From Methanocaldococcus jannaschii DSM 2661 (GTDB taxonomy: Archaea; AGJL01; Methanococci; Methanococcales; Methanocaldococcaceae): 32,000 bases of DNA. This document shows, in pieces, positions 5,307-30,291 of this stretch (the first letter of the stretch is position 1; each line of letters starts with the position of its first letter). The position numbers and the translations under genes were made by a program. The stretch lies in contig NC_000909.1 in NCBI RefSeq assembly GCF_000091665.1, positions 790,712 through 822,711 on the forward strand, written 5' to 3'. The notes beneath the pieces were generated by a model, which did not search any database, was not told where the DNA came from, and saw only the letters and a list, made by a program, of their open reading frames with translations.

Positions 5307-6482
5307 TTATTTGATTTTGTAATAGTATTTTAAATCATCGTCTCCTCCAAACAACTCTGGGTGAATCATCTTTGCAAAGTCCATCATATAACCAGCTGGG
5401 TCTCTTGCCTCCCAAACATAATAATCTGGATGAGACACATAGAACCTTCCAGTTTTAAATGCTTTAAATTCAGCAAAGTTTGGATTTATTTTTAATAAAT
5501 CTTCTTTTGTCTTAACATCTCCATAGAACCATATTAATATAACAACATCTGCGTTCATAGCCCTTTCATAAAACGTTTCTTTATCTACATATTGATAGCC
5601 TCTATTATAATCATCAAATACATTTTTACCTTTAAACTCAGCAATCATTTTGCTGTAATAACTATCATTTCCATAGATTCCTGGCATATTTTTGGTTTTT
5701 GACCAGCTGAAGATAACAACCGTTGGTTCATTTGTTACATTTTGAACCTTTTTCAATATATTTTCTCTTACTTTAACTACATTTTCAAACCATTTATCTG
5801 CTTTTTTATATGCGTTGGATCCCCAGAATGCCGCGGCAAATTTTATCCACTCTACTCTTCCCATGTATGTTGGTTCTTGATAGGTGTAGAATCTTGAAAC
5901 AGTTACTCCCAATTCTTTTAGTTTCTCTTCAACCACATCTTCACTCTTCCAGTCACCTAAAAAAACAATATCTGGAGTCAAATTTACTATTAACTCATAA
6001 TTTACTCCTTTACTTGGACTTCCTATATCTACCACTTTTCCTTCATCAAACAATTCTTTAAGTTTTGGCGACTTTTCTACAGCATACTTTGGAGCCCCAA
6101 CTATAGTATGATGATAGGCATTCAATATGTCTGCTGCTGATATAATTGGGCAATAAAAGTCTGTAACGATTCTTTTTACAGGAACTTTTATTATCTTCCC
6201 ATCTGAAATGTTAGGAGCCTTAGCATTTCCTTCAACCAAAACAAACTTGTTACCCACAGAATCAGCAACTACACAATAACCCTCATCCCAGTGAGGATAG
6301 AGTTTGAACGTTTCTGCGTATCTAACCACATTAACTCCTAATTTTGGCTGAGTTTCAGCTTTTTGTGATTCAGATTGGGTAGTTTGTTGAAGCTGAGTTG
6401 TAGTTTTACTCTCTTCCACACATCCTGCAAATGCAACTATAACCCCAATCATTAAAATTGATAGTAAGAATAATTTTCTCAT
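5307..6482 (-). CDS. ABC transporter substrate-binding lipoprotein (Fe-chelate/corrinoid-type periplasmic binding fold)
   Basis: It has a signal peptide plus lipobox (MRKLFLLSILMIGVIVAFAGC) and a Thr/Gln-rich tether. The body is paralogous to 12435-13679 (RVEWIKFAAAFW vs RCEWVKMFAAFY; IHPELF vs LHPEAF). I chose the start at ATG 6482, which is preceded by GTGAT. The longest ORF starts at 6524. Confidence 0.75.
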   Translation of the reverse strand: MRKLFLLSILMIGVIVAFAGCVEESKTTTQLQQTTQSESQKAETQPKLGVNVVRYAETFKLYPHWDEGYCVVADSVGNKFVLVEGNAKAPNISDGKIIKVPVKRIVTDFYCPIISAADILNAYHHTIVGAPKYAVEKSPKLKELFDEGKVVDIGSPSKGVNYELIVNLTPDIVFLGDWKSEDVVEEKLKELGVTVSRFYTYQEPTYMGRVEWIKFAAAFWGSNAYKKADKWFENVVKVRENILKKVQNVTNEPTVVIFSWSKTKNMPGIYGNDSYYSKMIAEFKGKNVFDDYNRGYQYVDKETFYERAMNADVVILIWFYGDVKTKEDLLKINPNFAEFKAFKTGRFYVSHPDYYVWEARDPAGYMMDFAKMIHPELFGGDDDLKYYYKIK

Positions 6483-6647
6483 AATATCACTCTGTTCATA
6501 TTTTTTAAAAAAAATTAATAACATTTAGGACTATAAAGATTATCTAATATAAATTTTACTATTATTATTGTTATTAATTGTTAGGAGTTATTAAGTATTT
6601 CATATCATAAATTATAAAAAACCTTATTTTATTTAAAAATCATTTGA

Positions 6648-7529
6648 GTGATGCTTATGTTGAAAACAGAAAACTTATCTGTTGGATATGGAAACTATGT
6701 AGTAGTTGAAGGCATAAATTTGGAAATAAACAGAGGAGAAATTTTGTGTATTATAGGCCCTAATGGAGCAGGGAAATCAACACTCTTAAAAACAATAGCA
6801 ACTTATTTAAAACCAAAGAAGGGAGTGGTTTATTTAAATGGAAAAAAGATTCATGATTTAAAGCCAAAGGATTTAGCAAAGGAAATGGCTGTTGTTCTAA
6901 CAGAGAGGGTTAATCCAGGAAACATGACAGGTTTTGATGTTGTAGCAATTGGAAGACACCCATATACTGATTTATTTGGTAGATTGACAGAGAGGGATAA
7001 AAAGATTATAATCGAATCGGCAAGGGCAGTTAATGCAGAATATTTGTTGGAGAAAAATTTCTTTGAGATGAGTGATGGAGAAAGGCAAAAAATAATGATA
7101 GCAAGGGCATTAGCTCAAGAACCAAAGGTTTTAATCTTGGATGAACCAACATCATTCTTAGATGCCAAGCATAAAATTGAATTAACTTTATTATTGAGAA
7201 AGTTAGCAGATGAGAAAAATTTAGCCATAGTTGTTACTTTACACGATATTGAACTTGCTTTAAGAATTGCTGATAAGATGGCTTTGATAAAGAATCATAA
7301 AGTTATTGCTTATGGATATCCTGAAAATGTTATGAAAAGGGAGATAGTTAATGAACTCTATGATTTAAAGAATGCCAATTATAGTGAGGTTATTGGTTAT
7401 TTTGAATTAAAGAACAATCCAATAAAAAATAAAAAAATATTTGTTATATGTGGAGGAGGAACTGGGGCTAATGTTTTGAGATATTTGGTTAAGAATAGAT
7501 ATGATGTTGTTGTTGGCCATCTTGCATAA
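6648..7529 (+). CDS. ABC transporter ATP-binding protein (FepC/BtuD-like) whose C-terminal extension is interrupted by a frameshift
   Basis: It has Walker A (GPNGAGKST), a signature-like MSDGERQK, Walker B (LILDEPTSFLD) and an H-loop (TLHD). The probable start is ATG 6657, after GAGTGAT. A glycine-rich IFVICGGGTG begins an extra domain at about nt 7437. Confidence 0.85.
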   Translation: MMLMLKTENLSVGYGNYVVVEGINLEINRGEILCIIGPNGAGKSTLLKTIATYLKPKKGVVYLNGKKIHDLKPKDLAKEMAVVLTERVNPGNMTGFDVVAIGRHPYTDLFGRLTERDKKIIIESARAVNAEYLLEKNFFEMSDGERQKIMIARALAQEPKVLILDEPTSFLDAKHKIELTLLLRKLADEKNLAIVVTLHDIELALRIADKMALIKNHKVIAYGYPENVMKREIVNELYDLKNANYSEVIGYFELKNNPIKNKKIFVICGGGTGANVLRYLVKNRYDVVVGHLA

Positions 7530-7782
7530 AAATGATGCTGATTACTTTATAGCAGAGGCAATGGGAGTTAAGATAATTGAGGAAGAGGCATATAAAAAGA
7601 TATCAAAAGAAACATTTGAAGAGGCATTAAAAGAATTAAAAAATTCGGATGTTGTTGTTTATACAGATTTCCCTATAGGAGAGATGAATGAGCTAAATTT
7701 AAAGCTTATTGAAGAGGCAAAAAATTTAAAAAAGAGGATGATTTTTTACGAAGATGATATTTCAGTTTTGAAAGAGATTTAA
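7501..7782 (+). CDS. Continuation of the ATPase C-terminal domain in the +1 frame. It is probably not an independent gene.
   Basis: This ORF overlaps the ATPase 3' end by 29 nt. Removing one C from GGCC at 7515-7518 joins ...RYDVVVG to ILHKNDADYFIAEAMG... There is no SD or TATA of its own. Confidence 0.5.
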   Translation: MMLLLAILHKNDADYFIAEAMGVKIIEEEAYKKISKETFEEALKELKNSDVVVYTDFPIGEMNELNLKLIEEAKNLKKRMIFYEDDISVLKEI

Positions 7783-7836
7783 CTTTTAGAATTAGCTTGG
7801 TGAATAATATCTCTTTTTTAGGTATATTCATAAAAG

Positions 7837-7843
7837 TTTATAT
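7837..7843 (+). promoter_or_regulatory. Probable TATA box of the TPR-HEPN gene
   Basis: AAAGTTTATATG lies about 58 nt upstream of ATG 7899, and a G-rich SD lies at 7888-7892. Confidence 0.4.
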
Positions 7844-7898
7844 GTAGTAGGAAGTATAATATCAAATATAGTAATTTAAATTTGAATAGGGGGTTTGT

Positions 7899-10145
7899 AT
7901 GGACTCTAATATCTTAAATATTAGAGAACTTAGAAAACAGGCTGTTAACTTAGAGAAAGAAGCAAAAAAAGAAAAACAGAATGGAAATTATAAGAAATCT
8001 GCAGAATTATTTTTAAAAGCATCAGAAATTTATAATAAAATTAGGGATGAGAAAAACAAAAAATGGACACTTGCTAATTATTATTCTATTATGGCGAAAG
8101 AATATTCGTTTTCTAATGAATTTGATAAAGCGAGGGAATTTTATAAAAAAGCTGAAGAATTATTTTTAGAACTAGGGATAAAGAAATCCGCTATGTATTG
8201 TTTTTATTATTATTTAAAGACCTACATATATGAAGAAAAAGAAAAAGTAGAGAAAAAAGACAACGATAAATATTTAGAACTTTTAAACAAATATATAATT
8301 GAAGCTGAACAATTTTTAGAGAAGTATAAAGAGTTTTCAGATATTTGGATGTATTTTGATATAAAAATATACTATTATAAGAAACTATCAATAAAACATA
8401 GGAAATTCGAAGGAAACCTCGATAAAGCCATAGAATTAACAGAGAAGTGTTATAAGTTAGCGGAGGAATCATACAATAAATTTAATGACAAAAACTACAA
8501 AAAAGCAGAAATTTTTAATAAACATTTCTACTACAATTTGATGGCTCAAAAATTTGAGAGTGAAAGGAAATTTAAAGAAGCTGCAGAATATTATAAAAAA
8601 TCTGGAGACACAATAAAAGAAATTGATGAAAAAATTGCTTATGATGAATATGCAAATAGCTACAAATGGTTGGCTATTGAGAACAAATACAACAAAGAAA
8701 AATTTGAGGAGTATATTAACAAAGCTATAGAATTTTCAGAAAAAAGAGGAGATAAACTACAGGAATACTATTATTTGGGATTAAAATATGACCATTTAGT
8801 AAGATTTGCTAATGATTTGGAAGAAAAAATCGATTATATCAAAAAATCAAAAGAATATTATTACAGGTCTAAAAGCTTCGAATTCGCTAAATATATGGAA
8901 TATTTAGAGTATTATTATCAATTTAAGTATGAATTACTCAATGGAAATTATGAAAAAGCTTTAAATTTCTTACAAAAAGCTAAAAAATCTTTAAAAAATG
9001 TGAAAATATCAAATATAATCTTTTCAAAATATACTCTGGAGTGCGATGAACTTATTTGTAGATTTTATTTAAGTATTTCACAAGGAGAGTTTAAAAAGTC
9101 TGTGGAATTATTGGATGAATACTTAGAAATATCATTAAAAATATTATCCGATTGGAAAAATACAAGAAAATATAAGTTCTATGAATATTTAAAACCTTGC
9201 GTAGAAATCTTAAGTAAAGAGTCATTTACAAAAGATGATTTGTTCTTATTAGAAGATGTTATCTTAGAGGTAAGAAATGAAAAAATTAGCCTTAATTTAT
9301 ATAAAATATGCTCTTTAACTTATGCTTATGTTTCATTATGGAAAAACAAGATAAGAGATAAAGAAATACTTGAAAAAATAAAATTAAAGATTATTAAACA
9401 AATTACAACCGAAGATGTTTCAAAAGATTTAGAAAATAGAATAAAAATCCAAATGGCAATAGAAAGAAATGATTGGTTATTGAGATTACCACCAGCACTT
9501 GTTGAAAATTTTGATAATTGCATATACTTCTTAGAAGAAGTTTTAGATGAGTTTAAACATGCTGCATATAGGGAGTTTTATAGATTGTTGGAAAATTACC
9601 TAAAAATTATTGTTGAATTTAATGCTATGGCATTATGGGGGGATACTTGGAAACAAATATTAGAAGAAAAAATATCTAACAGAAAAAAACCTTTCGAAAT
9701 ATTTACCTTTGGAGATTTTGCTCAATCTCTAAGGTTACTTAAAAATGAAGGTTGTGAATATTGTAAAAATATCGATGACGAGATTTTTGATTTATTGGAC
9801 AAACATGTTAAAATTAGAAATAATTTATCTCATGATTTCAATGCAAAAGCTCCTGAAGATATTGATATAAAGGGAGATACTCTCAAAATAATCTATAGCA
9901 CGTTAAATGCATTTCCGATATGTGTAAAGGTAACACACGATAAAAAGAAACCTTGGTATGGTGTTGAGGTTATATGGAATCAATTACCTAAAAAAATGTC
10001 ATTATACTCAAATACTGAACTGAAAAAAGGATGTTTATACTATATCGAGCCATATTCAAATATTTTAGATAAAAACAAAATGCATCCAAAAATCATAATA
10101 CCAATTGAAGTATCAAAAGATATTGTTTATCCAAATAAAAATTAA
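7899..10145 (+). CDS. Uncharacterised 748-aa protein: N-terminal TPR-like helical repeats, a Swt1-like HEPN domain (RX4H) and a beta-rich C-terminal tail
   Basis: The ORF is long and clean, with its own TATA (7837-7843) and a G-rich SD (7888-7892). The motif F[DK][KE]AxE[FY]YKK[AS] recurs ([45 protein letters not shown]). The C-terminal part reads [32 protein letters not shown]...[10 protein letters not shown]...[11 protein letters not shown]. Confidence 0.55.
9816..9833 (+). other. Candidate HEPN catalytic motif R-x4-H (R640 NNLS H645)
   Basis: The codons aga aat aat tta tct cat are in the frame of the 7899 ORF. The motif sits at the end of a predicted helical segment, as in HEPN RNases. 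Confidence 0.5.
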
Positions 10146-10147
10146 AA

Positions 10148-11203
10148 TTAATCAATCTTTATTTTCTTTTCACCCTTATAAACCAAATATACAACCAACA
10201 TCCCTCCCAATATATCCAAAACTGCTCCAATAGGAAGAGGGGAGGCGGGCCTATTTATTCCATAGAGGTAGTGGATTGGAAGATAGTATTTCAATGAAAG
10301 GATATGACATGAAACCATCAAAATAACTCCCAAAAACATTGTTGCTGGAACTAAGTATCTATGGTCAGAGGTTTTTATTAATGGTCTTGCTAAGTATGGA
10401 GCAATAATTCCAATAAACGCAATTAAACCTACATAAGGAATTATAGCTCCAGTTATAAACGAAGCGAAGAATAAAACTAACAGTCGTGTCTTTTTTATAT
10501 CCAATCCAAAACTTTTCGCATACTGCTCTCCAAACAGTAGGGCGTTTAAAGATTTTATTAAAAACATAACTCCAATAATAAATATAATTGAGCAGATTGT
10601 CATTGGAATTACATCTCCTAATGTTATCTTAGATAAAGAACCAATTGTAAATCCCCAATACTCTTGAATCTTCAACTCTTCAGCATTTGCAATTAAATAG
10701 GCTCTTAAACCCATAAAGAAATAACTCAGCAATAAAGCAACAATTATAACCCCATTTGCCTCTCTAACTCTCAAAGCAATAATAATTAGCAAAATCATTG
10801 AAAATATTCCTCCACACCAGCCAGCAACTAAAATGCTCTTTTCTCCAAAAATCTCAAATAAATGTGAGAGAGAATCAATAAATATAACCAGTGCAACAAC
10901 CATTAAAACTCCAGACGATATTCCAGTTGTGTATGGAGAGGCTAATAAATTCCTAAATAGAGTTTGAAGCATTAATCCAGCTACAGATATGGTTAATCCA
11001 ATAAGAACCGCTCCAATTATTGGAGGCAGTCTAACATCTTTTATTATTATATCTTTAAACTCATTTCCAGTAGTTCCCTTTAATAGGAAATTAATTATGT
11101 CTTTTACAGTTATTAAATGGGTATCTCCAGCCAAATATAGGGCAGTAAAGGGCAATATTAAAGAGAGGATAAATAAAATTAACAAAATCCCAACTTTATT
11201 CAT
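10148..11203 (-). CDS. FecCD/BtuC-family ABC transporter permease
   Basis: The 351-aa ORF is multi-TM and has the family-typical N-terminus (LLKGTTGNEFKDIIIKDVRLPPIIGAVLIGLTISVAGLMLQTLFRNLLASPY). Its ATG at 11203 directly abuts the upstream permease stop (TAAATG), which suggests translational coupling. Confidence 0.85.
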   Translation of the reverse strand: MNKVGILLILFILSLILPFTALYLAGDTHLITVKDIINFLLKGTTGNEFKDIIIKDVRLPPIIGAVLIGLTISVAGLMLQTLFRNLLASPYTTGISSGVLMVVALVIFIDSLSHLFEIFGEKSILVAGWCGGIFSMILLIIIALRVREANGVIIVALLLSYFFMGLRAYLIANAEELKIQEYWGFTIGSLSKITLGDVIPMTICSIIFIIGVMFLIKSLNALLFGEQYAKSFGLDIKKTRLLVLFFASFITGAIIPYVGLIAFIGIIAPYLARPLIKTSDHRYLVPATMFLGVILMVSCHILSLKYYLPIHYLYGINRPASPLPIGAVLDILGGMLVVYLVYKGEKKIKID

Positions 11204-12251
11204 TTAAATCCCCATTTTTCTTATTTTTAGGTAGATTATAATTGCTATTGGTGCCCCAATTATTGATAGAGGGCAGAGTAGAGGAAGGACATTCGTTGAT
11301 GATATTAAAACTCCCGGTCTTGTTAATATGTCTGCAACAACTAAAAATACAGCTCCTAAGAGCATGGTTACTGGAATTACATAGATATGTTTGGAAGTTC
11401 CACAAATCATTCGTGCAAGTATTGGGCAGGTTATTCCAACAAACGCTATCGGTCCAGTAAATGCTACAACTGTTGCAGTTAAAACGCAAGAGAGAATAAT
11501 AAGCCACATCCTTAAAGATTTTATATCAACTCCTACACTGATTGCATACTTCTCCCCTAACAAATTTGCATCCAATTTTTTTGATAGAAAGATGTGGGTT
11601 AAAATTGAGAGTGGGATAATTAATTAAAGCCATTATAACAACCATGTCCCATGTTAGATTATTTACTGAACCCATTTCCCACATCAAAAAGCTTGAAAGA
11701 TTGCTATTTTCCTCTCCAATATAATCTCCCAAATAAATAACAATAGTAGAAAATCCAGAAGCGATTGCTCCAATCATTAAACCGCAAATTAACAAAGTTG
11801 AAACTTGCTTAACAACCCTTGCAATATTTATTACTATAAACATCGTTATAAATGCTCCAATGTATGCAGATATTATAAATCCATAAATGTTGTGTGGAAT
11901 TCCTAATTTGAAGAGCATGTAGGTAAAGAGGTATAAAACAACTCCTAACGATGCCCCACTTGCAACTCCCATTAGGTAGGGGTCTGCTAATGGGTTTCTA
12001 AAATAGCCCTGCATTAAAATCCCTGCTAATGCAATGGCAATTCCAGCAACAATTGCTCCAATAGTTCTTGGCAATCTCAACTTAAAGATAATTTTATCCT
12101 TTATTTTGTTTCCAGTTGTGCCTTTTAGTAGATAATCAGCTAATTCTTTATTTTTTATAGAAATGGTTCCTAATTTTATGCTATAGATTGAAGAAATCAC
12201 TAACAAAATACTTAGGATTATTGATAAGGTTAAAAATCTTTTAAGTTTCAT
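11204..12251 (-). pseudogene. Second FecCD/BtuC-family permease, split by an apparent 1-nt frameshift near 11619-11627
   Basis: The 241-aa ORF (12251-11526) reads correctly up to ...VVIMAL, then degenerates. The +1 frame is open from 11623 and reads [33 protein letters not shown]... through to the 123-aa ORF ending at 11204. The repaired length would be about 348 aa, matching the 351-aa paralog. Confidence 0.7.
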
Positions 12252-12434: not shown

Positions 12435-13679
12435 ATGAAAAAGCTTTTGGCTATTGGTATATTGTGTATAATGGTAACAGCTGTAATGTCTGGATGCGTA
12501 AGTGAGAAAGAGATAAACATAAATAATTCCAATAAAATCACCACTAACATGCCAGTATCTGAAAAAAATATTACAAAAATTTTAAAATACGCTAAAAATA
12601 TGAACCTAATATATTATGATGAAAATGGAAATATTGTGAATCCCTACAATGGGGATAAGTGGAAATATAAGGTTTTTATTGATGCAACGGGACAGAAGTT
12701 TTTATTGAAGAACAAAGATGACCCAGTTCCAAGTTGGGCAAAAGAGAAGTTGGGAGATAACTTCAAAGTTATAAATGTGCCTTTAACAAGGGTTATTGTT
12801 ATGAGTTCTACAGAGATTGCGTTAATGGAGGCAATAAATGATGATGGTTCAGTTATAGGGTCAGTTAAAGGAATAATGTGGGGAAAATCCTATAAGTGGT
12901 ATTTTAAAGATATAAACAAAAGTTTAGCAGAAGGAAAAATAATTGATGTTGGTTCATCAAGTAATCCAAATTGGGATAAAATTATTGAAATCAACCCACA
13001 GGTTATATTTGTATATCCTGGCTATGATGGAGATAAGATTATAGCAAAATGTAAAGAGTTAGGAATAACCTATGTTGCTGATGCGGAGTATTTAGAAAAC
13101 GACCCGCTTGGTAGGTGTGAATGGGTTAAGATGTTTGCTGCCTTTTACAACAAAGAACCTGAAGCAAAAAGATATTTTGAAAAAGTTGAGGACAATTGTT
13201 TAAAAGTTATAAATAAAACTAAAAACTGTCCAAAAGTTACAGTTGCATGGGGTTACAACTCTCAATGGGGATGCTATGTTCCAGAAAATAATTCTTATGT
13301 TGCTAAGGAAATAATGTTCTACTGCAATGGAGATTATATTTTCAAAGACCTCAATGGAACAGGCAGTGCAAAAATCAACTATGAGACGTTTGCTGAGAGG
13401 GCAAAAGATGCTGATGTTTGGGTTGTTCCTTCAAGTACAGCATGGTTATCAACATTTAAAGAAGATAATCCAGGATATGAAACATTTAAAGCAGTTAAAA
13501 ATGGAAGAGTATTTTGTGAGAGTGATGATTACTGGCAACTTGGATTGCTAAAAACTGATGAGGTTATAATGGATTTAGCGACTATTTTGCATCCAGAAGC
13601 ATTTAAAGGAAGAAAAACACACTTCTTCCTAAAATATAACATAGAAAATAACACTGCGACACCATTCATTGCTAAATAA
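12435..13679 (+). CDS. ABC transporter substrate-binding lipoprotein (paralog of 5307-6482)
   Basis: It has a signal peptide plus lipobox (MKKLLAIGILCIMVTAVMSGC), a strong SD (GGAGGT, 12423-12428) and a TATA (TTTATATA, 12360-12367). The body shows paralogous blocks with the other SBP. Confidence 0.75.
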   Translation: MKKLLAIGILCIMVTAVMSGCVSEKEININNSNKITTNMPVSEKNITKILKYAKNMNLIYYDENGNIVNPYNGDKWKYKVFIDATGQKFLLKNKDDPVPSWAKEKLGDNFKVINVPLTRVIVMSSTEIALMEAINDDGSVIGSVKGIMWGKSYKWYFKDINKSLAEGKIIDVGSSSNPNWDKIIEINPQVIFVYPGYDGDKIIAKCKELGITYVADAEYLENDPLGRCEWVKMFAAFYNKEPEAKRYFEKVEDNCLKVINKTKNCPKVTVAWGYNSQWGCYVPENNSYVAKEIMFYCNGDYIFKDLNGTGSAKINYETFAERAKDADVWVVPSSTAWLSTFKEDNPGYETFKAVKNGRVFCESDDYWQLGLLKTDEVIMDLATILHPEAFKGRKTHFFLKYNIENNTATPFIAK

Positions 13680-20685: not shown

Positions 20686-23600
20686 TTATTTAAAAAACTT
20701 ATCTAATGTTAATTGAGCTCCTTCTTTCTTCAACTCATTTTTTGAAACTCCTACGGCTTCCATAATTCTCAAAACTGGAGGAAGAATCTGATTATCTATA
20801 TAGTAATTTACATCAATATCATCGATATCAACCTCTTCTGGAAGTTTTGCTCTCTCACTTATAGATTTTGTTCCTTTAACTATTATATAACCAATTATAT
20901 CCCCAACTTTTATCCTCTTTCCTTCTCTCATCAATTTTTTAGCTATCTCAACGTGTGGGGCTGTGGTTTTATACTCCTTAGGGTCTTTTGTTAGTTGAGT
21001 GTAAATAATTAAGTCCTCTTTTTTTATTTTCTTCTCTCTCAAATCTTTAATAACATCTTGGATTATCTTTTTAGCTTTCTCTATACTACCTTCAACCAAT
21101 AAAGCTTCTAAAACCCTCCTTTGTGTTATCTTTGCAATGTTAGACCAATCTCTTCTAACGAACTCCAACCCTTTAACTGTAACTCTTCCATTCTCATCGA
21201 TTAATGCATATCTCTTTTTGGTAACAAAGATACCTCTCTTAAAGTAGCCCTCAAACTCCAACTCCATAGTTCCAGGTAGTTTTGAGTTTATGTATTCAAC
21301 AAATTCCATAGCTTTCTTTATTAATTCCTCTTTGCTAATTTTTTCTTTCCAAATGGCATAAAATCCATCAGTGTCAATATATAAAACTTTAAATCCAAAC
21401 TTTTCTGCCTCTTTAACTGTCTCTAAGATATATTTTCTTCCTAAATAAGTTACAATTTCAGCACATTCTCTGCTGTAAAATCTCGCCCTTGGAAAAGCTA
21501 AATAGCCATAGACGCTGTTATGAGCGTAGATATTATTAACTAAAAAGTTTTCGTTATCTTCAACGCTTAAATCATAAACATAGCCGCTATATTCAAATGC
21601 TTCAATTTCTTTAACTTCATCAAGCATTAAATCTTTAACTGTTCCATACTTTGGATTTAAGGTTAATTTGTATCCTTTATTTTTAACTGGTGTGAATCTC
21701 GTTGGAATTCCTACTAAATTAAATAATATCATCAACTGGTTTAAATATTTCTCATCTTTAGCCATAAATGTTGAAGTTCCTTTGTGAGAGTTTTTCTTTG
21801 CCTTTAAAAATCCGTCTAAAAAGCTTTTTATAACACTTTCACTTGCTAAAAACAGCTCTTCAGGAATGTGTTTTTTGTCTTTATCCCCACATTTAAAGAT
21901 ATACTTTAGAACTAAATACACAATTTTGTTGTCCATTGTAACCTTATCTTTGACCATAGAACCTGCCCCAAACACTTCCTTAAATGTTTCAGCAATTTCT
22001 TTCTGATATTCTGGTAATGACTTATAGACAGAAATTTCATAAACTGTTTCTCCTTTTAATTTCTGTTTTTTCAACCTTCCCCTTGTTACAAAGAATCCTA
22101 AAAATTTAGCCAACTTTTCATCTAATTTTAAAAGGGCATTTATTTTTCCACTATATGCTCCTATCTCACAATCCTCAAACTCTTTATCGGGAATATTTGC
22201 TATATAATCCTTAATTTTTATGTATTGGATGTTACATCTGCCTTTTTTGAAATTACCGTGTTCTATAACCGTGTCGAAATATTTTTTGTATGCTTTGAAT
22301 TTTTCCTCATCTAATATCTTTATATCTACCTTGTTTATCTTTTTAATGATGTTATAGTCTATTAGCCCAAGTTCTTTTAAATACAAAATGCAATCATCAA
22401 AAATAACTTTTAATTTGTTGTTTTCTATATCCTCAAGTGTCTTTTTCAATTTAACGAAAAACGCTTTATCTTTATGTTTTGTGATTACAAGGTCTTTTAT
22501 TTCCTCTTCATCAGCATTAATTAATCTCTTTGGAATATTTATAACAACCTCTTTATCCACACAAGTAAGTTTCTTTGGGACAACTATCAAGTCACCAAAC
22601 CTTACATCATCTCCTTTAACCTCTACAATTTTCCCATTTTCATATTTAAATAAACTATGTCCTCTTGTTACCTTTATTGTTCTTCCTGACCTCAATTTTA
22701 TTTTATAAGCTTTCCCAAAATATGGATGTCTAATCAATGCCTTAACTTTTTTTATCTCACATTTTTTAGTTATTTTATCAAATGAGAATGTTTTTAAATT
22801 TTTAGTTTCCAATATTTCGCTGATGCCACTAAATTTAATTTTATCCTTATGTTTTCTCATTAAATCATCAATATACTCTCCAATTTTTACTACTTTTATA
22901 CCATCTTCCTCAATTATTGTTAAATATTCGTCTGGTAGAATGCTGTTAGCTAAAATCTTCAATGATTTCTGCTCATAATCTAAGAGGTTATATTCTTCAT
23001 TAATTTCTCCAATCTCAGCCATCTTTTTCATCCTCCTCTTAATATTTATCCTTCTTTCAATCAAATTTCTTAGGGTTTTTGGAATCAATCCTTCTTTCTT
23101 TTTACAGAACCAATGTCCCAATATTTTTTCACTAACATCTTTACAACACTCACAATCCAACGTATCTGGACTTATATTGTAGGATATGATTATTGATGGA
23201 TACAAAGAGTTATGGGTTAAAATTCCATTTGCAAAATAGTATGGTCTTCCTTCAAGGGTTAAATCATAAACTTCCCCTTTATAACTCTCCAAAGAAACAC
23301 AAACATCATCTAAATCATAGAATCCATAATCTCCAATTTTGTATAATGTTTTTTGTCTTATAATTTCATTAAGTAGATTGTTTTTTCTCCTACTGATAAA
23401 ACTAATTAAGATAGAAAACTTTATTAAATCTCCTTTTGAGAAAATCTCAATAACGTATCTTTTTAATTTTTTCCCTCTTTCTTCATAAGAATAGGTATAG
23501 AAACTGTATTTTATCCCTAATCTATCAAGAAGTGAGGCAATAAATTTAATTTTATCATAATTATTTGTTCCCTGATTTACAACTACTGCCCTTCTCACTG

Positions 23601-25590
23601 TATTTACATAACCATCTCCTTCAAAGAATCCCCTTAATATCGCATTTGGAAGATATTTTTCTTTATTTTTTAAGATTTCTTCAATCTTCAAATAAATATC
23701 TTTTTTAGCACAACCAAGTGTTATTGCCTTAGTTCCTTTTTTTCTTCTTACATATAGCTCATAATTAAACAGTTTTTTAAATATATATTTTATTTTTTCA
23801 ATAAAATCCTTTTCATCTTCATTGACAGTAATTTCAACTCTGTATTGATGAGAAATTCTTTTTTTGCCTCTTGAAGAGTCGAAGTATTCAATATCTCTCC
23901 TTAACAAATGCCCTTCTGCCAATAAAATACCAATAAGCTCACTTTTTAAGATAAAGTCCTCATCCATATCATTAATATATTTTTCGTAGTTTCCAATCGT
24001 TTCAAAGTCCTTACACAAAATTAGCTTCCCCTCTCCCTTGAATTTTGTTAATAATGATTTTGCATAAATATCTCTAACTAAATAATCATTTTTATTTATT
24101 TTTTTATGTTTAATTTTATATCTCAGTGGAATTTTATGGTTTGGAGTGCATTTTAATCCATTCACATTTATTAATTCGCCTTCATACTCATACTTCCAAA
24201 CCTTCTTTACTTTCTGCCAGCCATCTATTCCTAAAACGTAATTTCCCTCTTTAACGTCTTCAATATTAACTATACCTTTTCCTTTAACAACAACCTTTGT
24301 TCCTTTTGGATGACATCTGAAATCCATTGAAATGATGTCCTCAAACATCCCCTTTTCTGGTTCTTTAACATATCCCCCCTCATAGGTTGTTAATACCCTC
24401 CGTCTATACTCCTCTTCATCTGGTTTGTTTGGAACAATCATATTTTCTTTAAAAGCTCGCTTCATCAATAGATATTCAACCATCTGTCCAGAACTCATCC
24501 TTGTAATCTCAAAAGGTGTTTGATTAACAATCCTTGAGAACATCACTTCCAATGGGAAGAAGTATTTTCCAATTTTGTATGTGTATTTGGCATCTTGCAG
24601 GGAATATTCAATAAGAGTTTTATCATTATTTGCCCAATAATCTACAATCTTTGTATGTGGGATTTTTAGCTTTTCAATTCCAAATAAATTATAGACAACA
24701 TCTTCCAAAGTGTATTTTGTTAATTTTAGCAATCTTCTTGATATTGGATATAAATCAATATGCACCCTCCCTGGAATGTAGCTTCTATACTCCATACCTC
24801 CTCTTTTTATCTTTAGCTCCTCTCCATCCTTTCCTAAATTGATATCTATCCCATATATTTTAGCCCTTGCCTTTAAATAAGGAAAATCGAAGTTATCTCC
24901 GTTGTAGGTGTAGATGACATCATACTCCTTTAGAGTTTCAATAATTTTTTTGATTAGTTCTTTTTCATTTTTAACAACTTCTATATTTGGGTGATTAAAT
25001 TCTTTGTAAGTTATAACCTTTCCTCCGTTCTCATCCCAAAAGCTTGCCATTAAAATAGGGTCTCTCTCTGGGTTTGGCTCAGTATCTCTATTATAAACCT
25101 CCATATCAAAAGCTACTGATTTTAATTTAGGAATTTCTATGCTAACTGGCTTTTTATTTTCAAAATCCCAGTATGTCATTGGGATTATTTCATTATCTAT
25201 TAGGTATCTTTTAGCAAATGGAATATCATGTTCATAAATCTCTTTAACTATTTCACACTCTTTAATTTTCCTAAGTTTTGGAACTTTCTGTGGGTGAGTT
25301 GCTATGATTTTAATTACTTCCTTTTCCTTTCTAAGAATTATTTTTTTAACAACCTCAATATTTTCAACAAACTTTAATAAGTCATTTTTTAAAAGGAATT
25401 CCTTTATTTTCTCAATATCTTCATTTTCAACTTTCTCTTTATGTAGTTCAACGTAGAAATACGGTTTAAAATCTCTATCTTTTAGAATAGAGTTGATTAA
25501 ATAAAGATAAATAACTGCTTTATCCTCAATAGTTTTGTATGTGTTGTCTATTAGAGCATCAATTTTTATTTTTCCCATACTCATCCCCAA
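20686..25590 (-). CDS. polB: Family B DNA polymerase precursor containing two inteins
   Basis: The exo motifs are FDMEV and YNGDNFDFPYL. Motif A (DFR|SLYPSII) and motif B (KILAN|SVYGY) are each interrupted. Motif C is YIDTDG and the C-terminal PIP box is QLTLDKFF. The ORF caller starts at TTG 25590; ATGs lie at 25584 and 25578. Confidence 0.95.
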   Translation of the reverse strand: MGMSMGKIKIDALIDNTYKTIEDKAVIYLYLINSILKDRDFKPYFYVELHKEKVENEDIEKIKEFLLKNDLLKFVENIEVVKKIILRKEKEVIKIIATHPQKVPKLRKIKECEIVKEIYEHDIPFAKRYLIDNEIIPMTYWDFENKKPVSIEIPKLKSVAFDMEVYNRDTEPNPERDPILMASFWDENGGKVITYKEFNHPNIEVVKNEKELIKKIIETLKEYDVIYTYNGDNFDFPYLKARAKIYGIDINLGKDGEELKIKRGGMEYRSYIPGRVHIDLYPISRRLLKLTKYTLEDVVYNLFGIEKLKIPHTKIVDYWANNDKTLIEYSLQDAKYTYKIGKYFFPLEVMFSRIVNQTPFEITRMSSGQMVEYLLMKRAFKENMIVPNKPDEEEYRRRVLTTYEGGYVKEPEKGMFEDIISMDFRCHPKGTKVVVKGKGIVNIEDVKEGNYVLGIDGWQKVKKVWKYEYEGELINVNGLKCTPNHKIPLRYKIKHKKINKNDYLVRDIYAKSLLTKFKGEGKLILCKDFETIGNYEKYINDMDEDFILKSELIGILLAEGHLLRRDIEYFDSSRGKKRISHQYRVEITVNEDEKDFIEKIKYIFKKLFNYELYVRRKKGTKAITLGCAKKDIYLKIEEILKNKEKYLPNAILRGFFEGDGYVNTVRRAVVVNQGTNNYDKIKFIASLLDRLGIKYSFYTYSYEERGKKLKRYVIEIFSKGDLIKFSILISFISRRKNNLLNEIIRQKTLYKIGDYGFYDLDDVCVSLESYKGEVYDLTLEGRPYYFANGILTHNSLYPSIIISYNISPDTLDCECCKDVSEKILGHWFCKKKEGLIPKTLRNLIERRINIKRRMKKMAEIGEINEEYNLLDYEQKSLKILANSILPDEYLTIIEEDGIKVVKIGEYIDDLMRKHKDKIKFSGISEILETKNLKTFSFDKITKKCEIKKVKALIRHPYFGKAYKIKLRSGRTIKVTRGHSLFKYENGKIVEVKGDDVRFGDLIVVPKKLTCVDKEVVINIPKRLINADEEEIKDLVITKHKDKAFFVKLKKTLEDIENNKLKVIFDDCILYLKELGLIDYNIIKKINKVDIKILDEEKFKAYKKYFDTVIEHGNFKKGRCNIQYIKIKDYIANIPDKEFEDCEIGAYSGKINALLKLDEKLAKFLGFFVTRGRLKKQKLKGETVYEISVYKSLPEYQKEIAETFKEVFGAGSMVKDKVTMDNKIVYLVLKYIFKCGDKDKKHIPEELFLASESVIKSFLDGFLKAKKNSHKGTSTFMAKDEKYLNQLMILFNLVGIPTRFTPVKNKGYKLTLNPKYGTVKDLMLDEVKEIEAFEYSGYVYDLSVEDNENFLVNNIYAHNSVYGYLAFPRARFYSRECAEIVTYLGRKYILETVKEAEKFGFKVLYIDTDGFYAIWKEKISKEELIKKAMEFVEYINSKLPGTMELEFEGYFKRGIFVTKKRYALIDENGRVTVKGLEFVRRDWSNIAKITQRRVLEALLVEGSIEKAKKIIQDVIKDLREKKIKKEDLIIYTQLTKDPKEYKTTAPHVEIAKKLMREGKRIKVGDIIGYIIVKGTKSISERAKLPEEVDIDDIDVNYYIDNQILPPVLRIMEAVGVSKNELKKEGAQLTLDKFFK
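21517..22944 (-). mobile_element. Intein 2 (476 aa) in polymerase motif B, with degenerate LAGLIDADG blocks
   Basis: It starts at Ser (SILPDEYLTIIEEDG) after KILAN and ends ...NNIYAHN before SVYGYLAF. The endonuclease-like blocks LAKFLGFFVTRGRL and SFLDGFLKAKKN lack the usual acidic residues. Confidence 0.9.
23209..24315 (-). mobile_element. Intein 1 (369 aa) in polymerase motif A, with a LAGLIDADG homing-endonuclease domain
   Basis: It starts at Cys (CHPKGTKVVV) right after DFR and ends ...GILTHN right before SLYPSII. The LAGLIDADG blocks are LIGILLAEGHL and ILRGFFEGDGYV. Confidence 0.9.
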
Positions 25591-28793: not shown

Positions 28794-28893
28794 TCTCTCA
28801 CCAACTAAAAAGTATAAATTATAAATAAATAAAGTATAAATATTGTTAAAAACTTAAGTTAATTAAATTTTCAAATTTATTGTGGTGGGGTTT

Positions 28894-30291
28894 ATGATTG
28901 CCCTCTCTGTTTCAAGTGGTTATTTGCTCGATAATAATTATAGTGAGTATTCCTACTATATATTGGATAATGATGAGGACTTTCTTGTCTTTGTTATATG
29001 CGATGAGCCAAATACATTAAAATGTGGATTTAGAATATCTGAAATATTTTCAAGAGTTTTTTGCAATGCAGTTTATAACAACAGATACATAACCAACTTA
29101 AAAAATCTTATAGAAGTTGGTATTTATGAGGCTCTTGAAAATATGGATAAATTTTTGAAACAAAAAGGTCTTGATTATAATGATTTAAATGTATCTATTG
29201 CTGGAGGCGTATATAGAAATGGTAAATTAATGCTATTTTCTTTAGGAAATTCACCAGTATTTGTTGTTGATAAAGATTATTACTTATATTGCCCATTTGA
29301 TTTAAATAAAAACTACAATCTAAAAGATTGGAAGAAATTCATAAAATTCAGCGAAGTAATAGAAAATCCGAAAAGTGTTGTCGCTTGCAGTAACAAACTC
29401 GATGGAAAGGTGTTTAAATTTAAAAATGAGAATAACAAACTAATTGCTGAACCATTTAAATATAGGATTATACAGTTAATAAATAGTATAATATCCAATA
29501 GAGAAAATATCGATAAAATAAAGGAAGAGCTAAAAACTGATTTAAATTTAAAAGATAATACTCCTCTTTTTGTTGCATCTTTTGATGAAAAACCAATAAA
29601 TGATGAACTTGTTAAAGTAGGAAAGCCAAAATTAAAAGTAAGAGGATGTACTCCCATATTATCAAAAAAGAAAGAGGAAACATCTCCGCATATTGAACCA
29701 AAAATAATTAAAAATATGGTATTGGCGTTTATTTTAATTTTAATTCTTATATTTGGACTGTTTGTAATGTTAAGTCATAACAATTTAAATGGAGGAAATA
29801 ATAGTGATATTGTCAATAACTCATCATATCAAGTAAATACTTCAAAAATTTCAATAATAACTGTAAATAATGAAAATAAATCAACAAATATTTCGCTAAA
29901 TCCAATACAAACTGTTAAGACAGTTTCTTCTCTAAATAATTTGGATTTGAATAATACAATCACTAAATCTAAAAACAAAGATAGTTTAAAAATATTAGTA
30001 AAGTTTCAAGTGGGTGAAATTTCAAAAGATATAAAGAAATTGCCAATCTCTATAATGTTCCCAGAACAAGGATATTACTATATCTCAATAAAATCAGAAA
30101 ATAGTAACTTAAAACTGATTGATGTAGAGAATGGAGAGGTTGTATATAAAAACACTACCTTAATTGAACTGTTTGAAAAAATTGATGGAAAAGAAAAAAC
30201 CTACAACTTAATAGTTGAGTATAACGGTTCTGAGATACCTTCAGAAAAGGGGATTAATATTTCAATCTTTGAAATAAAGATAATAAAGTAA
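28894..30291 (+). CDS. Single-pass membrane protein with a cytoplasmic degenerate PP2C-like domain and an Asn/Ser-rich, sequon-rich extracellular domain
   Basis: PP2C-like blocks are present but the catalytic Asp residues are replaced: VFVICDEPNT (cf. DGMGG), SIAGGVYRNGKLMLFSLGNSPVFVV (cf. GDSR, nt 29245-29256) and VVACSNKLDG (cf. SDGL). The TM segment is MVLAFILILILIFGLFVML, starting at nt 29716. Many N-x-S/T sites follow. The likely start is ATG 28894; the ORF caller used GTG 28882. Confidence 0.45.
   Translation: MIALSVSSGYLLDNNYSEYSYYILDNDEDFLVFVICDEPNTLKCGFRISEIFSRVFCNAVYNNRYITNLKNLIEVGIYEALENMDKFLKQKGLDYNDLNVSIAGGVYRNGKLMLFSLGNSPVFVVDKDYYLYCPFDLNKNYNLKDWKKFIKFSEVIENPKSVVACSNKLDGKVFKFKNENNKLIAEPFKYRIIQLINSIISNRENIDKIKEELKTDLNLKDNTPLFVASFDEKPINDELVKVGKPKLKVRGCTPILSKKKEETSPHIEPKIIKNMVLAFILILILIFGLFVMLSHNNLNGGNNSDIVNNSSYQVNTSKISIITVNNENKSTNISLNPIQTVKTVSSLNNLDLNNTITKSKNKDSLKILVKFQVGEISKDIKKLPISIMFPEQGYYYISIKSENSNLKLIDVENGEVVYKNTTLIELFEKIDGKEKTYNLIVEYNGSEIPSEKGINISIFEIKIIK

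Follow-up and report, generated by a model that had tools for sequence, protein, structure and literature searches.

An important question raised by this locus of Methanocaldococcus jannaschii is what kind of protein is encoded by the long gene that lies between the ATPase and the permease genes of an ABC transporter, and whether it has any connection with transport. The gene occupies positions 7899-10145 of the window, by which the whole analysed stretch of 32,000 nucleotides (nt) is meant; all coordinates are positions within this window, unless stated otherwise. Its locus tag is probably MJ0875, as suggested by the gene order with the help of the Pfam family 'MJ0874', which is found on the C-terminus of the upstream ATPase. 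A preliminary description made from the sequence alone had read the product as an orphan fusion of tetratricopeptide repeat (TPR)-like repeats with a HEPN ribonuclease (RNase) domain of the Swt1 type. Its open reading frame (ORF), the position of R640-H645 at nt 9816-9833 and the peptides that it quoted were all reproduced here exactly. The domain assignment of the protein, in which we have high confidence, is as follows (aa, amino acids).

7899..10145, + strand: complete coding sequence of 748 aa with an ATG start, TPR-like/HEPN/OB-like protein (ORF list and full-length orthologs)
7899..9440, + strand: TPR-like alpha-helical repeats rich in K, E and Y, aa 1-514, a proposed scaffold or sensor (Pfam TPR_12, signature repeats)
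9474..9491, + strand: family-specific W526-x4-P531 motif (DWLLRLP), directly ahead of the predicted HEPN bundle (at least 90% conserved in 50 relatives)
9492..9908, + strand: predicted HEPN domain, aa ~532-670 (AlphaFold model, recurrent Pfam HEPN-clan matches, Foldseek)
within 9492..9908, + strand: predicted helices H1 (aa 532-547), H2 (550-593), H3 (627-645) and H4 (657-667), with a one-helix insert (594-626) between H2 and H3 (AlphaFold model)
9591..9605, + strand: E565-x3-K569 (LENYLK) in helix 2, with the upstream acidic residue of the predicted HEPN active site (E at least 90% conserved in 50 relatives)
9816..9833, + strand: R640-N641-N-L-S-H645, putative catalytic Rx4H motif, closing helix 3 on its C-terminal side (R and H invariant in 50 relatives)
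9918..10103, + strand: predicted OB-fold-like barrel of five beta-strands, aa ~674-735, proposed to bind RNA (AlphaFold model and Foldseek)

The gene is real, intact and constrained. Its orthologs can be followed along the full length, one at 80% and others at 43-52% identity, and three other M. jannaschii assemblies contain an identical copy. Compared with the 80% ortholog (locus L006), the ratio of nonsynonymous to synonymous substitution rates (dN/dS) was ~0.08, with values of 0.07 for the TPR, 0.13 for the HEPN and 0.04 for the OB part, the synonymous rate being near saturation and the ratio, therefore, approximate. All three parts of the protein are under purifying selection.

Predicted HEPN domain and its active site

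Conservation in this region was evaluated with an alignment of 50 family sequences, which covered the helical part, went down to ~16-20% identity and reached the haloarchaea. Its only invariant columns are R640 and H645, and the residues conserved in at least 90% of the sequences are N641, E565, W526, P531, W584 and G605. The RNxxxH pattern is kept by nearly all of the 60+ relatives, including the haloarchaeal proteins of ~940 aa. The combination of Ex3[KR] in helix 2 with Rx4-6H at the end of helix 3 corresponds to the published definition of HEPN (Anantharaman et al., 2013; PMC3710099), and membership of the region in the HEPN superfamily, with a site of the active type, is well supported by the aligned sequences together with the predicted structure.

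The AlphaFold model of aa 515-672 (mf561b8ff77d9), obtained with the 50-sequence alignment, had a pLDDT of 92.9 and a pTM of 0.87. In this predicted structure, the helices occupy model residues 18-33 (H1), 36-79 (H2), 90-102 (insert helix), 113-131 (H3) and 143-153 (H4), which gives the canonical four-helix topology of HEPN: an H1/H2 hairpin with E565-x3-K569, the insert, the Rx4H motif closing H3, and H4 completing the bundle. A Foldseek comparison of the model with the PDB returned four matches with a query TM-score (TMq) of at least 0.40, all of them HEPN proteins, although with non-significant expectation values (E): 2q00, which is listed as HEPN-T (PaREP1) in PMC3710099, 4nqf, 1wty and the Csm6 structure 8jh1.

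The Pfam profiles pointed in the same direction. Over the 50 HEPN regions, HEPN families took the first five places by recurrence, namely HEPN_Swt1 (25/50, best E 1.8e-5), HEPN_MAE_28990 (12/50, best E 1.1e-6), HEPN_RiboL-PSP (9/50), DUF4145 (7/50) and HEPN_Apea (5/50), followed by Abi_2 in four and Ribonuc_2-5A in two members. The recurring families appear as HEPN families in the 2013 survey (PMC3710099). For the window protein itself, HEPN_Swt1 gave an alignment of aa 562-646 with positions 4-92 of its 115-position profile, at 13.4 bits against a gathering cut-off of 27.5. Since this score is under the curated threshold, only the membership in the HEPN superfamily is secure, and the Swt1-like Pfam family (PF18731) can be named as the closest family. 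The earlier assignment to a Swt1-type HEPN is thus retained at the superfamily level, for which the invariance of the motif, the Pfam recurrence and the AlphaFold topology argue, with the Swt1-like Pfam family as the nearest one.

Other searches were negative. A word-indexed homology search with the HEPN-only alignment found one family member and no bridge to annotated HEPN proteins, the NCBIfam scan gave no match, and Foldseek against viral structures returned nothing significant.

Repeat region and C-terminal barrel

The N-terminal part had been described before as a K/E/Y-rich, TPR-like scaffold, and this description was confirmed. The first 540 aa contain 16.5% K, 12.6% E, 10.4% L and 10.2% Y, and Pfam TPR_12 matches aa 27-89 (nt 7977-8165) with an E of 4.8e-10 and 39.9 bits against a cut-off of 30.1, by which the TPR call for the region is supported at the level of sequence. 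The recurring signature F[DK][KE]AxE[FY]YKK[AS] is present twice in its strict form (at aa 75 and 225) and four times in the protein in a looser one. At the DNA level, a repeat family of 29 nt (D1) has five copies, which encode a signature of the G-N-Y-K-K-[AS]-x-E-L-F type. A regular ~34-aa tandem array was sought over the N-terminal region, and the spacing among the five signature copies was irregular (51, 150, 119 and 47 aa). Both TPR_12 and TPR_2 also match the orthologs, and some relatives have long extra arrays of canonical TPR. The Pfam scan of the 748-aa protein and its orthologs gave no P-loop or NTPase match, hence no central STAND NTPase domain.

The C-terminal tail of ~100 aa, previously noted as beta-rich and of no recognizable type, indeed consists of strands in the predicted structure, and its type is no longer blank. 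In a two-domain AlphaFold model (m0220bf52393b, pLDDT 85), five strands at model residues 160-221 form a barrel, for which the PDB matches in Foldseek were IF1, aIF1A/eIF1A, chains of the pre-40S and small ribosomal subunits as well as NfeD's C-terminal domain, with probabilities of 0.97-1.0 and target TM-scores of 0.37-0.66. Weaker matches were obtained with RimO/MiaB and the proteasome Rpt chains (probabilities of 0.2-0.8), and the E-values overall were 0.03-0.2. In the Pfam scan of the tail, no S1 or related family was found at E<=1 to 5. The barrel contains the conserved aromatic residues W686, Y687, W693, Y714 and Y715. As judged from the model, the tail is predicted to be OB-fold-like.

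Family, proposed function and alternatives

A profile search with the C-terminal 234 aa (HEPN plus barrel) found 60 proteins among 1.84 billion representatives, nearly all with the same C-terminal module, and at E<=1e-3 the HEPN-plus-barrel profile recovers this family alone (~60 representatives). The family is rare, with 11 clusters among 5.8 billion proteins, and its known range comprises Methanococcales and Halobacteria. In the public records, its members go by the names 'tetratricopeptide repeat protein' or 'hypothetical protein' and no others, so that the predicted nuclease domain is invisible to current annotation. The HEPN-plus-barrel module is the constant core of these proteins: relatives P0015, P0036 and P0041 extend 100-500 aa beyond the barrel, and in P0011, P0017 and P0034 the long canonical TPR arrays are added at either end.

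The genes adjoining the relatives are of a recurring kind. One relative (L011) is located between Fic/Mrr and AbiEii genes, two others (L005 and L019) have MNT-HepT pairs nearby, a fourth (L002) is near a Cas4-like nuclease, a sacsin-like ATPase, an integrase and an SMC/AAA_15 protein, and a fifth (L010) lies amid genes of no assigned kind plus an ADP-ribosylglycohydrolase. The 939-aa relative from Halobacterium bonnevillei (L018 6802-12088, WUUU01000002.1) has a tyrosine-integrase gene on either side, the two being paralogs with 55% identity; it lies at a distance of ~5 kb from a type I restriction-modification (R-M) operon and with a Fic gene near, and this locus looks like an integrative defence islet. 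No conserved neighbour or partner gene was found among the relatives' loci, and a conserved small downstream partner gene, considered as a candidate, was rejected. Moreover, some of the relatives gave weak recurrent matches in PADLOC to CARF_HEPN, Csx1/Csm6 and Cas13b at E of at least 2e-4, all of which are HEPN-bearing models. The pattern of the relatives is that of a stand-alone accessory gene travelling with defence and mobile genes.

Proteins of this general kind have been known since the catalogue of HEPN and TPR fusions of 2013: Table 1 of Anantharaman et al. (2013; PMC3710099) includes the Swt1-like HEPN fusions 'STAND-ATPase, TPR, S1' and the TPR-fused HEPN family LA2681. The Swt1-like/Abi2 clade (PF18731) shares with the window protein the best Pfam match (25/50 members) over an alignment spanning the E and the Rx4H, the active-type R-N-x3-H and the union, within a single chain, of HEPN with repeats of the TPR type and with a barrel of the S1/OB type, whereas the window protein scores below the cut-off, has neither STAND nor another NTPase, has a barrel without Pfam S1 match and belongs to a closed archaeal set. 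The likeness to the LA2681 family is by description alone, as a HEPN with conserved Rx4-6H fused to TPR and with archaeal members reported (PMC3710099). RNase L and the KEN domain of Ire1 similarly have a repeat or sensor region ahead of a HEPN RNase in one chain, with weak Ribonuc_2-5A matches in 2/50 members, but KEN is a circularly permuted HEPN (PMC3710099), the sensors are ankyrin/pseudokinase or lumenal, the proteins are eukaryotic and the homology is at the superfamily level only. HepT/MntA and the CARF-HEPN proteins (Csm6/Csx1) use a HEPN Rx4-6H RNase effector; the CARF_HEPN, Csx1 and Csm6 models are matched weakly in PADLOC, and HepT pairs occur near two relatives. Unlike these systems, the window protein has neither an MNT antitoxin gene next to it nor a CARF domain, and CRISPR-cas genes are absent from its vicinity. 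A literature search on MJ0875, TPR-HEPN and Swt1-like HEPN with TPR, which covered the supplement of the 2013 HEPN survey in part, yielded nothing specific and no publication dealing with this family. What is new is an archaeal variant of the repeat-plus-HEPN conflict proteins, distinguished as a rare closed set by being NTPase-free, by its own HEPN-plus-barrel module, by the W-x4-P, W and G-D signatures and by scores below every Pfam cut-off.

In RNase L, Csm6 and HepT, HEPN domains pair and cleave RNA independently of metal, and the mechanism proposed here is modelled on them. We lean towards the protein being a single-chain, stand-alone conflict-system RNase (of the defence or abortive-infection type) of hyperthermophilic archaea. 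By analogy with these enzymes we infer the RNase activity, an activation dependent on dimers and a trigger, and from the domain logic and the neighbourhoods of the relatives the role in defence or RNA surveillance. The TPR-like solenoid of ~510 aa would be the sensor or an autoinhibitory scaffold, and the HEPN domain the effector, with E565, R640, N641 and H645 as putative active-site residues of what by analogy would be a metal-independent endoribonuclease; the OB-fold-like barrel may assist in holding the RNA substrate. The nuclease would be off until a trigger binds the repeat region, whereupon two HEPN domains would pair to create a composite active site, and the cleavage of cellular or invader RNA (tRNA, rRNA or mRNA) would result in the arrest of the infected cell. 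In this genome, the gene itself is accessory cargo with its own leader, placed precisely between the convergent stop codons of the ATPase and the permease and, in this reading, with no functional tie to the transporter. The earlier reading of a repeat sensor fused to a HEPN effector holds and is supported: HEPN families lead both the Pfam recurrence and the Foldseek TM ranking, below cut-offs and significance, R640 and H645 are invariant over 50 relatives, and the gene is not universal at its site, being absent in M. vulcanius and M. fervens.

A more specific version of this proposal is tentative, and we regard it as possible rather than probable: an NTPase-free single-polypeptide innate-immune RNase of archaea, in which the solenoid recognises an invader protein or RNA and licenses the pairing of the HEPN domains, with the barrel selecting the RNA target. 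If true, archaea would have in it a minimal counterpart to RNase L or to Avs-type sensor-effector immunity, hyperthermophilic and common to methanogens and haloarchaea. Tests of archaeal defence systems other than CRISPR and restriction-modification are few, particularly for methanogens, and the gene would be a clean test candidate, being single, with apparently its own promoter, with E565/R640/N641/H645 as targets for mutagenesis and with related species lacking it available for comparison. A specialist would find the family unsurprising, yet a well-defined and easily testable candidate for an archaeal defence nuclease.

Several results weigh against the protein being a HEPN RNase of a defence system. 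The curated Pfam HEPN cut-off was not reached by any of the 50 members, with an E for the window protein of 0.096 against HEPN_Swt1 and 0.024 against DUF4145. The Foldseek E-values of the HEPN model against the PDB were 0.9-7, none of them significant, and the sequence and profile searches against the PDB gave no meaningful match: FlhA, golgin and CYP17 at E of at least 0.02 look like chance, and HepS had an E of 0.83. A scan of viral contigs turned up no relative, and PADLOC-DB v2 gave no significant system-specific match, the best one for the window protein being AriB (E 9e-4). The neighbours in M. jannaschii and in the 80% relative are housekeeping genes and not a defence island, and the gene is as conserved as these neighbours (80% vs 68-91%), without rapid diversification. 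Finally, a single-gene toxin without an antitoxin must be self-restrained, and this self-restraint is assumed here.

These points are partly shared with other explanations. The strong purifying selection in all three parts and the housekeeping neighbours in M. jannaschii and its close relative would also be compatible with a regulated cellular nuclease for RNA processing or quality control, an archaeal analogue of Las1, Swt1 or the Ire1/RNase L type, acting on host RNA under stress; the resemblance of the barrel to the OB domains of translation factors and ribosomal proteins fits such a role, as does the closest Pfam family, named after the eukaryotic surveillance nuclease Swt1. We consider it unlikely, as a core RNA-processing factor is expected to be broadly conserved in Methanococcales, whereas this family is very rare and patchy, the locus in M. 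vulcanius and M. fervens has no such gene, and the relatives adjoin R-M, abortive-infection, toxin-antitoxin and integrase genes. The latter surroundings, with the haloarchaeal relative between two paralogous integrase genes and others near toxin-antitoxin pairs, could be taken to indicate a selfish or addiction-type element with the protein as its toxin cargo, kept by harming the cells that lose it or by aiding the persistence of a mobile element. A single-gene insertion with a precise junction and the homopolymer frameshift in the gene in one M. jannaschii assembly (see below) would fit this too, but no conserved antitoxin or partner gene adjoins it, the window is without transposase, terminal repeats or tRNA target, and the same locus is occupied in two lineages 20% apart in protein sequence with a low dN/dS; such a role seems rather improbable.

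The HEPN domain might also be a non-catalytic module for binding RNA or a ligand, as proposed for the HEPN dyad of eukaryotic Swt1 and for the nucleotidyltransferase-associated HEPN, the protein then being a scaffold or adaptor. Inactive HEPN domains exist (PMC3710099), and every Pfam HEPN profile match obtained here is below threshold. However, inactive HEPN domains typically lose the Rx4-6H (PMC3710099), whereas R and H are the sole invariant positions in this family, with conservation extending to the polar N after the R and to the upstream E, so that we would give this option little weight. Least credible is that the protein is coupled in function to the ABC transporter encoded on either side of it, regulating uptake, for instance. 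In favour of this, one could cite that in M. jannaschii and one relative the gene is placed on the ATPase strand with the ATPase to one side and the permeases to the other. The near-identical clusters of M. vulcanius, with an ATPase of 98% identity, and of M. fervens are without the gene, all more distant family members are in unrelated contexts, and the 116-nt leader has TATA-like and SD-like elements of its own; by the synteny of the two related species, the link to the transporter was rejected.

Locus and transporter neighbours

The surroundings of the gene, including the putative expression signals in its leader (SD, Shine-Dalgarno), are the following.

6648..7782, + strand: upstream neighbour outside the proposed system, ABC-transporter ATPase with a C-terminal 'MJ0874' domain (Pfam ABC_tran)
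7783..10147, + strand: window-specific segment, absent between the ATPase and permease orthologs of M. vulcanius M7 and M. fervens (blastn)
7837..7844, + strand: TATA-like box TTTATATG, 62 nt 5' of the ATG, putative archaeal promoter element (sequence reading/regex, consensus resemblance)
7888..7893, + strand: SD-like AGGGGG, 5-11 nt 5' of the ATG (consensus resemblance)
10148..12251, - strand: convergent downstream neighbours outside the proposed system, two FecCD permease genes (Pfam FecCD)

The gene is on the same strand as the ATPase, and its end is separated by 2 nt from the stop of the convergent permease 10148-11203 (- strand). As noted before, no nucleotidyltransferase or antitoxin is adjacent, the neighbours being the ABC ATPase and the FecCD permease. 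The segment 7783-10147 consists of an intergenic leader and the single gene. When the M. vulcanius and M. fervens loci (L013, L014) were compared with the window by blastn, the match ended at 7782 and resumed at 10148/10149. The gene is missing from M. vulcanius M7, whose ATPase is 98% identical, and from M. fervens; in both, the stop codons of the ATPase and the permease overlap in a TTAA. In comparison, the locus of the 80% ortholog, from hydrothermal-vent metagenomes, has the same arrangement at the same site: an intact ATPase gene (374 aa) is followed by the TPR-HEPN gene, then by two FecCD genes in convergent orientation and by a binding-protein gene. The TPR-HEPN-OB gene is an accessory insertion in an otherwise ordinary transporter cluster. 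The ends of the segment have no notable terminal inverted repeats, there is no tRNA gene in the window, and the Rfam scan of the window gave no match. A transposon-like insertion was rejected on account of the lack of terminal inverted repeats, the shared TTAA end being trivial in DNA of 30% GC.

The preliminary description had also credited the gene with its own TATA box and SD sequence and with a higher AT content than its neighbours. Both elements are present in the 116-nt leader, at 7837 and 7888-7893, as resemblances to the consensus. The AT-richness was confirmed, with 25.1% GC in the gene, 31-36% in the neighbours and 30.6% in the window, as was the 2-nt gap to the convergent permease stop. 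The deficit lies mainly in codon positions 1 and 2, and the GC content of third positions (GC3) is 21.5% vs 23-29% in the neighbours. This distribution implies that the AT-richness mostly reflects amino-acid composition and is no strong sign of foreign origin, which was rejected as an explanation of it.

A separate observation concerns the homopolymer 8499-8504 within the TPR-HEPN gene, which is A5 and not A6 in an assembly of the same strain (L012, ERR9765773) and would in this form truncate the protein. The A6 is kept in the assemblies from ERR9765778 and ERR9765745 and in GCA_013329685.1, and the A5 form could be either a mistake of assembly or a genuine inactivating change.

This sequence does contain the two frameshifts that had been noticed in the flanking transporter. 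The ATPase is split into ORFs 6648-7529 and 7501-7782 (293 and 93 aa) by a single additional C at ~7517, and the second permease into ORFs 11204-11575 and 11526-12251 (123 and 241 aa) by a single additional A at ~11622. Three other M. jannaschii assemblies, with no mismatches over 14.8 kb, lack both extra bases, and they encode an intact ATPase of 374 aa (100% identical) and permeases of 351 and 348 aa, the 348-aa gene being found in L012 as well. Because the extra bases are missing from three otherwise identical assemblies, there is no evidence for a decay of the transporter, as had been hinted at. They are most likely record errors or private mutations of the sequenced clone, and the apparent decay is thereby corrected, most likely, to two single-base errors of the record.

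The transporter cluster has a binding-protein gene of the Peripla_BP_2 family at each end, at 5307-6524 (- strand) and 12435-13679 (+ strand), the two being divergent. Adjoining them are a NifH-like gene and a pair of membrane genes of the nucleoside-recognition 'Gate' type, in an arrangement that differs in M. vulcanius and M. fervens. The window also contains genes for RadA, F420-dependent sulfite reductase, a NifH-like protein, OTCase, Trm5, RFC, intein-containing PolB, MoeA, CofC and flagellin. The ORF of the family-B DNA polymerase (20686-25590, - strand, 1634 aa) includes two inteins, with intein-splicing, LAGLIDADG and PI-TkoII matches. An ORF of 469 aa at 28882-30291 (+ strand), located in a second, markedly AT-rich stretch (GC ~0.25) between genes for a metallo-beta-lactamase-fold and a small zinc-ribbon-like protein and without a Pfam match, may be another accessory gene.

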